Positions 3,001 through 6,000 of a stretch of 8,645 bases of DNA are shown in pieces. The stretch is taken from the IMG/VR virus record IMGVR_UViG_2548876856_000015, one strand, 5' to 3'. Source of the DNA: a virus (lineage: Duplodnaviria > Heunggongvirae > Uroviricota > Caudoviricetes). Position 1 is the first letter of the stretch, and the number at the start of each line of letters is the position of its first letter. Made by a program: the position numbers.

Positions 3001-6000
3001 CTTGGTGTTTTCATATAGCCAAGAAGGAAATAGTTATGACCAAAGAAGAAAAAATTCTTTATTTATTCCAACTATCGGTTAAGACTCACACTGCATATCA
3101 GACTGCTGCCATGACATCAGATAAAAATTACAGTACGTCAGAAAACCCGATAGACGACATAAGCAAGCTTTACGATAAGTTCGAAGCACTACTCGATAAA
3201 AAGTTTGCTGAGGCTGGGCTTGAGTGATTGTTGAATAATCGACAAAACCCAACTTAAATTTTCGTCAGTGGGCTCGATGCCATGTGCGGTGAGCTCACTT
3301 TTCAAAACTCCAAGCAATTCAGAGCTGATTTTCAATATATCTGCTTGATTTCTAACTATTCCCACTTTTTCCTCCCTTGGTCTACGCGCGGTCATGTTTT
3401 ACGCCCAAACGACTTCACAGTTATTGTTTAAAATCTGGACTTTCATTTCATACACCTGCTTTAACATGAGTGCCTGGTGGCACAACATGACTCAACGAAT
3501 CATCCTGGACTTCATATGCCCCAGGCGGCTACTTCGTGGGCGTCCTGCCTGTTCGTTTTTGACATTTACTGACTGCTTACGACACATGCACCGTGTTGCA
3601 ACCAGATTTTGTTGTAATCCGGTAGTTGGTCTGGAACAAAAGATAAAATTAAATTGCGAGATATGCAAGTAATATTTGCGAGGTATGCAAATTTATAGGT
3701 AATAAAAAGCCACCTTTCGGTGGCCGATGGATGGGATATTGAGGTTAATTATGTCTCTTAAGGGTTTGCGACTGACTGATTAAGACCTTTCCAAAGACCA
3801 TGAATCGGTGTTCGTTTTCGCTAGTAATTCCCCATTCACGGTAAATCTGGTTATCAGAAATCACCAGCAGTTTGTCAGGAATCATTTGAAGTCTTTTAAC
3901 GTATATTTTGTCATCAAAACCAAAGACATATATACCATCACCATCAAACTGATTGATGCTGACATCAACGAAGATGAGATCTCCTGGCTCAATGGTTGGA
4001 CACATACTGTCCCCACGAACGTTGATAACTTTGATGTGATTGGCTGGTCGTCCGCCGAACATTGATACAGCATTATCAGTTCTGTATTCGATGGCATGAA
4101 TCACATCAATGACATCACCGCCTTGGATAAGGCCATTTCCCGCACTGGCACTGATATCCAGCATTTCAATACGGAACACATCCTTCACCTGCGCAACATC
4201 CTCATTATTACTGTTTTTATATACAGTATTACTTTTGTGGGCAGAGGTAAAGAGATCAGCAATATCAACACCTAAGCTCTTGGCAATATTACTCAGTGTT
4301 TGTTCGGTAAATTGTTTTTGCTTACCCGTTTCTAAGCGCGAGATGTTCGCCGCATCTACTCCTATTGCTTCAGCGAGATCGGCGATTTTCATGTTCTTCG
4401 CTTGGCGAAGTTGTCTGACTCGGTTTCCTATGTTCATGCGTTTATTACATTTCTTTATTGCGTGATAAGCAAATCAACTTGCGCAAAATAATTGCGTGAA
4501 ATAACATGCATAACGCGCAATATTTGGAGGTTATATGCAATCACTATTACGAAATGTGCGTAAGGCGCATGGTTTCACTTTGCAGCATGTTGCTGCGGGT
4601 GTTCAAGTCAATCCAGCGACGTTGAGTCGTATTGAGAGGCTGGAGCAGATTCCATCTATCGAGCTTGCAGAACGTTTAGCCAATTTTTTTAAGGGTGAAG
4701 TCAGCGAAATGCAGATTCTTTATCCGGCACGTTTTCAATCTAGCCAAAACCAGAATGGGTTTAAACCACAGGAACAGGAGGTGAACCGTGGGTAAGCATC
4801 ACTGGAAAGTAGAAAAACAGCCTGAGTGGTACGTGAAAGCTGTCAGAAAAACTATCGCAGCGTTGCCGGGGGGTTACGCTGAAGCTGCTGACTGGCTGGA
4901 TGTAACAGAGAACGCATTATTTAACCGCCTTCGTGCCGATGGCGATCAGATTTTCCCGCTGGGATGGGCAATGATTTTGCAACGTGCTGGTGGAACTCAC
5001 TTCATTGCTGACGCTGTGGCGCAGTCTGCAAATGGCGTCTTTGTGTCTCTTCCTGATGTCGAGGATGTGGACAACGCCGATATCAACCAACGCCTGCTGG
5101 AGGTCATTGAACAGATCGGCAGTTATTCAAAACAGATTCGTTCAGCAATTGAAGACGGTGTAGTGGAACCGCATGAGAAGACAGCAATTAACGACGAGCT
5201 GTACCTCTCAATTTCGAAGCTGCAGGAGCATGCAGCACTGGTCTACAAAATTTTTTGCATTTCAGAAAGTAATGACGCCCGCGAGTGTGCAGCTCCGGGC
5301 GCCGTGGCGTGTCGTGACTGTGGAGAAACTAACGCATGAATAGTTTAACAACACACTACCGTCGCTCGCAACTGATTGCGCTTCCTGTACCGGGTGGAAA
5401 AGCGAAGGTGGAGTATTGCTATGCAGTAAATGTACCAGGTGGCAGGGTAATTGTAACCCACAGCTTTGCAGAGTGGGCTGTGGGTGATTTTAACCGGCAA
5501 AAGGAGACAGTCCTTTGCGACAAGTTAACCGCTGGTTCAAAGATCACTACGGAGTACCCGTCAGAGTCATTCGTTGGGAGCCGGAAACACAACGGGTTAT
5601 CTACCTCCGCGAAGGCTATGAGCATGAATGCTTCAGTCCGCTCGAAAAGTTTCGTCGTAAATTCAGGGAAATAGAGGTCGGTCATGAGCACTAAATTAAC
5701 CGGCTATGTATGGGATGGTTGCGCAGCGTCAGGCATGAAATTATCCAGCGTGGCAATTATGGCACGCCTGGCTGATTTCAGTAATGACGAAGGTGTGTGC
5801 TGGCCATCAATTGAAACCATTGCCCGCCAGATTGGCGCGGGGATGAGTACCGTCAGAACGGCTATCGCACGGCTGGAAGCAGAAGGCTGGTTAACGCGTA
5901 AGGCGCGTCGCCAGGGTAACCGCAATGCGTCGAATGTTTATCAGCTTAACGTTGCGAAGCTTCAGGCTGCGGCTTTTTCTCAACTGTCAGATTCTGACCC

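Follow-up and report, generated by a model that had tools for sequence, protein, structure and literature searches.

Overprinted genes, in which two genes of one strand are read in different frames over a long stretch of shared DNA, are a known phenomenon in phages, and Rz/Rz1 of lambda, encoding the spanin complex, is such a pair. Here, we describe the ymfM locus in an 8,645-nucleotide stretch of DNA (hereafter, the window) from the Caudoviricetes record IMGVR_UViG_2548876856_000015, where ymfM, a homolog of a named gene of Escherichia coli K-12, overlaps a small gene of the DUF4222 family in another frame. As in Rz/Rz1-type pairs, the older of the two frames appears to dominate the constraint on the shared nucleotides, and the product of the younger, overprinted frame has a biased composition and is predicted to be disordered. 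However, Rz1 lies wholly inside Rz and the roles of both in the spanin complex are established and related, while the overlap described here is terminal, and the overprinted part of ymfM is marked by stop avoidance and a fixed terminator alone, its own sequence not being conserved.

The K-12 counterpart of ymfM is b1148 of the e14 prophage, annotated as “cell division inhibitor YmfM.” Ansari et al. (bioRxiv 10.1101/2020.11.19.390815) cloned the ymfM “open reading frame” in pBAD24, used a whole-gene deletion, and equated e14 YmfM with the inhibitor SfiC. ymfM is now recorded as sfiC, the E. coli K-12 division inhibitor gene that had long been sought, and infection studies employ it both as a tool and as a target for deletion. 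DUF4222 (Pfam PF13973, PHROG 1343) is a family of small enterobacterial phage proteins, and the window gene shares with it a full-length profile match, a size of ca. 60 amino acids, and a place in the early region directly upstream of the replication gene. In the distant members phiNP, EKP1, and CharmingMan, the gene is not overlapped, whereas here and in most close relatives the upstream gene overlaps it. A literature search retrieved no paper that connects ymfM with DUF4222, with an overlapping frame, or with ribosome profiling. The DUF4222 gene was already known; what is new is the conserved dual-coding arrangement and the ambiguity over a named K-12 gene.

As a gene, the window ymfM is no different from its K-12 counterpart; it is the interpretation that differs. 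The original prediction had equated the 112-amino-acid open reading frame (ORF) with e14 ymfM by position and length, rightly so, since the two products differ at 6 of 112 residues and have the same neighbors (ymfL upstream, the replication gene downstream). The internal ORF starting with TTG is also intact in K-12, with 58 of 59 identical residues; window position 5515 corresponds to position 1,204,001 of MG1655. The 601 bases around the feature are present in 2,700 of 5,426 complete E. coli genomes. The features of the locus in the window are as follows.

4788 to 5339, plus strand: ymfL, a CII/CP76-like regulator (Pfam Phage_CP76, E value of 1.5e-13; called “protein YmfL” on identical DNA by the Prokaryotic Genome Annotation Pipeline, PGAP)
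5336 to 5674, plus strand: ymfM ORF, 112 amino acids, homolog of K-12 b1148 (from the ORF list, the K-12 comparison, and PHROG 1170)
5336 to 5514, plus strand: ymfM residues 1 to 60, the nonoverlapping N-terminal half, conserved and probably folded
5491 to 5493, plus strand: TAA closing the DUF4222 frame ahead of its start, read from the sequence
5501 to 5506, plus strand: AAGGAG, the putative Shine-Dalgarno sequence of DUF4222, 8 nucleotides (5507 to 5514) before the start, read from the sequence
5515 to 5694, plus strand: DUF4222 gene, 59 amino acids, with a TTG start (5515 to 5517) and a TAA stop (5692 to 5694), in frame −1 relative to ymfM
5515 to 5671, plus strand: dual-coding stretch, ymfM residues 61 to 112 in the +1 frame of DUF4222
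5672 to 5674, plus strand: ymfM stop TAG, formed by the DUF4222 ATA (Ile53, a rare codon) and the G of the next codon
5674 to 5677, plus strand: GAGG, a probable Shine-Dalgarno sequence for the replication gene, whose ATG follows after 6 nucleotides
5684 to 6625, plus strand: replication-initiator-like gene, 313 amino acids (HTH_36/DnaD_N-like; Pfam HTH_36, E value of 4e-11; “DNA replication protein O” in phage records)

These ORFs belong to a tight chain in which a Cro-like gene overlaps ymfL, ymfL and ymfM share ATGA (5336 to 5339, the TGA stop of the former overlapping the ATG of the latter), and the TAG of ymfM is followed by GAGG, 6 nucleotides, and the ATG of the replication gene. The ymfM and DUF4222 ORFs share 160 nucleotides (5515 to 5674) in different frames, so that the last third of ymfM covers 90% of DUF4222 and the ymfM frame also reads 53 of the 59 DUF4222 codons. 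The ATG of the replication gene (5684) comes 9 nucleotides after the ymfM stop and within the last four codons of DUF4222, whose TAA falls 8 nucleotides inside the replication gene. Every coordinate of the original prediction proved exact, from the TAA at 5491 to 5493 and the AAGGAG at 5501 to 5506 with its 8-nucleotide spacer to the TTG at 5515, the end at 5694, the 11-nucleotide overlap between DUF4222 and the replication gene, and the −1 frame. In K-12, the stop that closes the DUF4222 frame is a TGA located 6 nucleotides farther upstream. Taking together the comparisons described below, we consider it likely that positions 5336 to 5694 hold two separately initiated, out-of-frame overlapping genes in the early operon of an e14-like lambdoid prophage.

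The product of the TTG ORF, for which a resemblance to DUF4222 had been suggested, matched Pfam PF13973 over profile positions 3 to 52 of 53 (E value of 2e-18; 66.1 bits against a cutoff of 27) and PHROG 1343 over 59 of 59 positions (E value of 1.7e-34), bearing out the resemblance. Its AlphaFold2 (AF2) model is a beta-barrel with a predicted local distance difference test (pLDDT) score of 83. The resemblance to Tudor/SH3-like small barrels (the C-terminal Tudor domain of UvrD/PcrA, the RNA polymerase-interacting domain of CarD/Mfd, and the KOW domain of Spt5) concerns the fold only, at 6 to 14% sequence identity, and a PDB sequence search with the DUF4222 profile gave no significant match to any solved structure. 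Neither PADLOC nor NCBIfam gave hits for this protein or for YmfM.

We compared the locus in 44 genomes, one per species, which provided 40 distinct sequences that span 12 or more genera of enterobacteria (Escherichia, Shigella, Atlantibacter, Citrobacter, Enterobacter, Kosakonia, Kluyvera, Raoultella, Leclercia, Pantoea, Phytobacter, Silvania, among others). Across these loci, the DUF4222 protein was 69 to 97% identical and its start fell at the same aligned codon throughout (ATG in 35 of the distinct sequences, TTG in three, and GTG in two), with GGAGG, GAAGG, or AGGGG located 10 to 16 nucleotides ahead of the aligned ATG in relatives. The ORF was intact in every homologous locus examined, well beyond what chance would give. 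Homologs of 59 to 70 amino acids were found in Escherichia, Klebsiella, Salmonella, Citrobacter, Enterobacter, Kosakonia, and Providencia, and homologs carry a DUF4222 annotation in many genera.

Polymorphism was assessed in 86 E. coli e14-type loci with 53 haplotypes. A viral-contig scan yielded only near-identical E. coli sequences, which served for counting polymorphisms but were of no use for diversity. Within the overlap, 15 sites were polymorphic, of which 13 were synonymous and two nonsynonymous in the DUF4222 frame, while in the ymfM frame one was synonymous and 14 were nonsynonymous. The same was seen in the pairwise comparison of the window with K-12, where three of the four differences in the overlap were synonymous in the DUF4222 frame and all four changed an amino acid in the ymfM frame. 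With its profile matches, its own Shine-Dalgarno sequence and start, and this 13:2 ratio, the TTG ORF at 5515 to 5694 is, on the evidence of these comparisons, a genuine DUF4222 gene with its own ribosome-binding site, as the original prediction had suggested.

Turning to ymfM, the 112-amino-acid product had no family in a Pfam scan but matched PHROG 1170 over 112 of 112 positions (E value of 7e-67). Conservation was concentrated in its N-terminal half. Residues 1 to 60 carried 14 synonymous and 8 nonsynonymous polymorphisms in the E. coli loci, nearly all invariant columns of the alignment (A3) fell within residues 1 to 50, and PHROG 20047, a 63-amino-acid profile, matched residues 1 to 63 only. 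Short versions of 76 to 78 amino acids exist in databases. The N-terminal half occurs in three highly diverged subfamilies (ca. 30% identical), all with the same read-through arrangement. By these measures, the N-terminal 60 residues are under purifying selection and clearly coding.

The tail was not conserved. In the largest subfamily its identity was 0.49, versus 0.77 for DUF4222. Pairwise diversity at 4-fold sites was 0.51 to 0.55 in the overlap and 0.556 in the nonoverlapping replication gene of the same loci, so the sites that are synonymous in DUF4222 are free of extra constraint beyond stop avoidance. No additional synonymous constraint exerted by a conserved tail peptide was seen. The AF2 model of YmfM was weak overall (pLDDT of 47.6), with strands and helices in residues 13 to 66 and none in residues 67 to 112; beyond residue 60, pLDDT values were 31 to 43, and we used this weak model only for the unstructured tail. 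As judged from substitution patterns, the amino acid sequence of the tail is unconstrained, and the model predicts that the tail is disordered.

What is maintained in the tail is the frame itself. The ymfM frame (+1 relative to DUF4222) was open from an upstream ATG to +157, +160, or +163 in the 44 genome loci and in five further phages. The ATG was located 128 to 179 nucleotides before the DUF4222 start, with the exception of one deviating locus, and the resulting ORFs, mostly of 108 to 114 amino acids, all enter DUF4222 for ca. 52 codons. Among the distinct coding sequences, 40 of 40 were open in +1, while the +2 frame contained one to six stops and two of the antisense frames one to nine. 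We calculated exactly a null model in which the DUF4222 protein was fixed and synonymous codons were drawn from local codon usage; the probability of an open +1 frame was 0.02 to 0.15 per sequence (mean of 0.063), and that of an open +2 frame was 0.004. In neighboring genes, 10.6% of the 53-codon windows were open in +1. Clustering of the 40 sequences gave 20 groups at a nucleotide distance of 15% and 11 at 20%.

Stop avoidance could be followed codon by codon. At the Val, Leu, and Ile codons at risk of creating a +1 stop, the stop-creating form NTR was used in 0 of 176 cases, versus 59 of 194 in safe contexts of the same gene. Codon-context bias was ruled out as the cause, given that 35 neighboring genes used NTR in 197 of 390 cases (51%) in the same risky context. 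Thus, Val18 of DUF4222 was GTC in 20 sequences and GTT in 20, Val28 was GTT in 38 and GTC in one, and the Leu or Val at position 4 was encoded by CTT, GTT, or CTC only. Leu31 was mostly CTG, and the codon that follows it, Arg32, was CGN in 40 of 40, even though AGR is common at other Arg positions. On a neighbor-joining tree, all 13 inferred third-base changes at three fully risky sites were between C and T, whereas free 4-fold sites underwent 8 to 15 changes each among all four bases.

The terminator was also fixed. In 39 of 40 relatives the ymfM stop column consisted of NTA (ATA in 29, TTA in eight, GTA in one, and CTA in one) followed by A or G, giving TAG or TAA, and the exception (L035) had GTA-G two codons later. 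This column showed a single inferred change, while DUF4222 residue 53, which contributes to it, varied among Ile, Leu, and Val. Selection signatures were, in sum, found in both frames of the overlapping pair, the 13:2 ratio and 77% identity in DUF4222 and the 0 of 176 and fixed terminator in ymfM. Because the ymfM frame stays free of stops and its terminator holds its position across genera, we take the tail as translated, which is what these patterns indicate.

The alternative that survives best, although an improbable one, is that only DUF4222 is functional in the overlap and that the ymfM tail, perhaps ymfM itself, is an accidental stop-free read-through. An unconstrained amino acid sequence and a tail predicted to be disordered would be expected from it, and the omission of the 112-amino-acid ORF by PGAP would agree with it. 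In four distant DUF4222 genes into which no long upstream ORF reads (those of YeP2, Hafnia yong2, and two of Providencia), the +1 frame is likewise open, and DUF4222 genes may have some intrinsic tendency to open this frame. Other points also weigh against two maintained frames. The Fisher test for 0 of 176 versus 59 of 194 NTR codons (p = 2e-19) treats related sequences as independent, and the phylogeny-aware count of 13 out of 13 changes is weaker, ca. 1e-4. The conserved NTA-R adjoins the Shine-Dalgarno sequence of the replication gene, and its conservation could partly serve that signal. In phages of the SfV/ST64B type, the +1 ORF has no stop before the next gene, so the fixed terminator is not universal. 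Lastly, the literature searched contained no ribosome-profiling, proteomic, or tagging data for either frame.

Accidental read-through is, however, difficult to reconcile with 40 of 40 open coding sequences from 20 clusters at 15% nucleotide distance and a null expectation of ca. 0.06 for each, with the lack of stop-creating codons at risky sites where neighboring genes use them in half of the cases, with a stop position kept through Ile, Leu, and Val changes, and with the strong protein conservation (14 synonymous to 8 nonsynonymous) of the N-terminal half of ymfM. The original prediction had held the tail to be nonfunctional read-through. The part of this claim that stands is the lack of constraint on the amino acid sequence, seen in the 4-fold diversity and the 14:1 ratio; the part that does not is the lack of function, given a frame kept open and a stop fixed across genera.

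A programmed −1 frameshift near CAA-AAG (5498 to 5503), which would join the N-terminal domain of YmfM to DUF4222 and had already been offered as the weaker option, is very improbable. It shares with known cases (dnaX, the phage tail chaperones G/GT, and insertion sequence elements) the −1 relation of the two ORFs and, in this window, the A-AAG motif, which would allow an A-site Lys slip into a −1 frame that is open from 5494. Unlike those cases, the locus lacks any conserved slippery heptamer, a separate start codon serves the −1 ORF, and the zero frame runs on for 52 codons past the putative slip site, with no stop there. The motif is CAG-AAG in K-12, a scan of the 40 relatives found no conserved X XXY YYZ heptamer in the overlap, and in five relatives (L017, L022, L027, L031, and L042) the DUF4222 frame is closed 0 to 6 nucleotides before its ATG. 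We therefore rejected the frameshift, considering also the conserved start and Shine-Dalgarno sequence of DUF4222.

Some database proteins (P0031, P0051, P0060, P0063, P0090, and P0186) join the N terminus of YmfM to DUF4222 or switch frames twice, and the first five might be seen as products of such a frameshift. However, their junctions differ in position and are made by indels, and most of them come from single low-quality Logan/ENA contigs. Errors of sequencing or assembly, or else sporadic mutations, probably account for them.

The least tenable alternative, to which we assign a negligible probability, is that the 59-codon ORF is open by chance and ymfM the sole gene, as annotated in K-12 MG1655 and several phage records, and it is already refuted by the comparative data, that is, the Pfam (66 bits) and PHROG (1.7e-34) matches, a DUF4222 protein that keeps 64 to 97% identity across genera while the ymfM tail diverges to ca. 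49%, substitutions that land on DUF4222 third codon positions, and a DUF4222 family that stands alone in phages without ymfM.

Under the reading that we prefer, with two separately initiated genes, ymfM would start at an ATG coupled to the ymfL stop and its product would consist of a conserved domain of ca. 60 amino acids and a tail of ca. 52 amino acids read in the +1 frame of DUF4222. DUF4222 would be initiated independently, from the AAGGAG and the TTG at 5515 (most relatives have ATG), to make the conserved 59-amino-acid protein modeled as a beta-barrel. The nucleotide sequence of the overlap would be dictated by DUF4222, with the tail residues of ymfM drifting freely as long as stops are kept out and the terminator remains fixed. 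The most likely reason for keeping the frame would be termination-reinitiation coupling, by which ribosomes coming from ymfL and then ymfM would run on to the start of the replication gene. A stop close to the next start, as termination-reinitiation involves, is found at this junction, with the ymfM TAG 9 nucleotides before the ATG (6 to 18 in relatives, mostly 9), the DUF4222 TAA 8 nucleotides after it, and AAGGA, GAGGG, or AGGGA motifs in relatives as counterparts of the GAGG ahead of the replication gene. Another possibility is that YmfM requires a tail that is disordered and has a set length, whatever its sequence. The locus also offers a clean natural overprinted tail, where stop avoidance and the fixed terminator are the only visible marks of selection, so that ideas about translational relay in phage operons can be tested directly.

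The ATG of the replication gene lies in the ymfM frame, with the TAG and three codons in between, and read-through of the stop would fuse YmfM to the replication protein. This in-frame relation would be kept automatically, because any indel must preserve the DUF4222 frame. On the opposite strand of K-12, a deep-sequencing study has reported ECS003 (PMC3175480), an abundant cis-antisense small RNA candidate of ca. 70 to 116 nucleotides that faces the ymfL/ymfM junction and the ymfM ribosome-binding site; the equivalent position in the window is ca. 5300 to 5400, minus strand. An Rfam search of the window found no RNA family.

Distant phages gave an indication of the age of the two frames. Yersinia YeP2, Providencia PSTCR8lys, and Citrobacter phiNP, together with EKP1 and CharmingMan, carry a stand-alone DUF4222 gene without a ymfM-like ORF, ending in a stop that overlaps the replication gene start. 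In three distant DUF4222 genes, the +1 frame closes early. From its broader distribution, its occurrence without ymfM, and the closed +1 frame in these three members, DUF4222 is to be regarded as the older gene and the ymfM tail as a younger, overprinted extension. The distant loci that are open in +1 are L130, L131, L132, and L045, and in the Hafnia locus an annotated “Ash family protein” starts upstream of DUF4222 in that frame. In SfV, ST64B, 2H10, and Stx phages, the ymfM-like ORF passes unstopped through DUF4222 and on into Ash (PF10554) and sometimes Phage_pRha domains. These ORFs are annotated as single proteins of 278 to 385 amino acids, in which the Ash domain begins ca. 20 nucleotides after the DUF4222 stop, and they could be either real fusions or miscalled N-terminal extensions. 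The long ORFs of the SfV/ST64B/Stx type are found at the following places.

L127, 1352 to 2188: SfV orf37
L128, 1358 to 2515: ST64B sb41
L136, 1352 to 2503: long ORF of the same type
L138 and L043: long ORFs of the same type

The overlap has consequences for the identity of the division inhibitor. The ymfM fragment cloned by Ansari et al. also holds AAGGAG, the TTG, and DUF4222 codons 1 to 53, that is, the entire Pfam domain, and their deletion removes both genes. An earlier library clone contained ymfM and 92 codons of ymfN, hence the full DUF4222 gene, and later work used the same ymfM deletion. In transcriptomic data, induction of the ymfM region came late in the SOS response (transcripts, with no protein reported). 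Since the published clones and deletions affect both genes, filamentation cannot be assigned to one frame, and the molecular identity of the inhibitor is ambiguous. The earlier suggestion that the active product needs re-examination is justified, as published work used only whole-ORF clones and whole-gene deletions. On prior grounds, we lean toward the variable N-terminal domain of YmfM as the product that would inhibit FtsZ-ring formation; the replication-linked DUF4222 protein is a distinctly less likely candidate, and both together, or something else, would be a rather improbable answer. It is conceivable, although we doubt it, that the SOS-inducible division block is due wholly or jointly to the predicted DUF4222 beta-barrel inside K-12 ymfM, the tail serving only to carry ribosomes to the replication gene.

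Public records annotate the locus in four styles: ymfM only, DUF4222 only, an antisense ORF, or nothing (window 5336 to 5694; L002 7823 to 8181; L137, L139, and L140). On DNA identical to the window, PGAP calls the TTG ORF “DUF4222 domain-containing protein” (WP_071791755.1) and leaves the 112-amino-acid ORF uncalled, the equivalent of 5340 to 5514 being empty. In K-12 MG1655, ymfM is annotated and DUF4222 is not, despite its intact ORF. Phages mEp390 and vB_EcoM-720R4 have only the 112-amino-acid ORF called and Pantoea phage AH07 only DUF4222, while in Klebsiella phage ST101-KPC2phi6.3 an antisense ORF is called at the locus. We rejected as a gene the 90-amino-acid antisense ORF of the window (5419 to 5691, minus strand), which spans the whole of DUF4222 and is codon-aligned with it; it is closed in 15 of 40 relatives and is therefore a by-product of codon usage. 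As a result, the K-12 reference annotation lacks a conserved 59-amino-acid protein encoded inside ymfM, and in thousands of other, automatically annotated genomes it is ymfM that is missing.

The ORF list and Pfam matches identified the window as the early region of an e14-like lambdoid prophage. Besides those of the overlap, the following genes were recognized.

572 to 1699, minus strand: integrase
1680 to 1925, minus strand: excisionase
3745 to 4437, minus strand: S24/helix-turn-helix repressor
4535 to 4795, plus strand: Cro-like helix-turn-helix gene, overlapping ymfL

Farther 3′ on the plus strand, the region encodes PerC, a protein with a LexA DNA-binding domain, RusA, and KilA-N. At the end of the prophage, beside the integrase, a 160-amino-acid ORF (1 to 483, minus strand) without Pfam or PADLOC match may be a cargo gene. 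The LexA-domain protein (7083 to 7442, 119 amino acids), located between PerC and RusA, consists of the DNA-binding domain only (PF01726, E value of 4e-19), without the S24 peptidase domain, and may act as an uncleavable LexA-like repressor or decoy.

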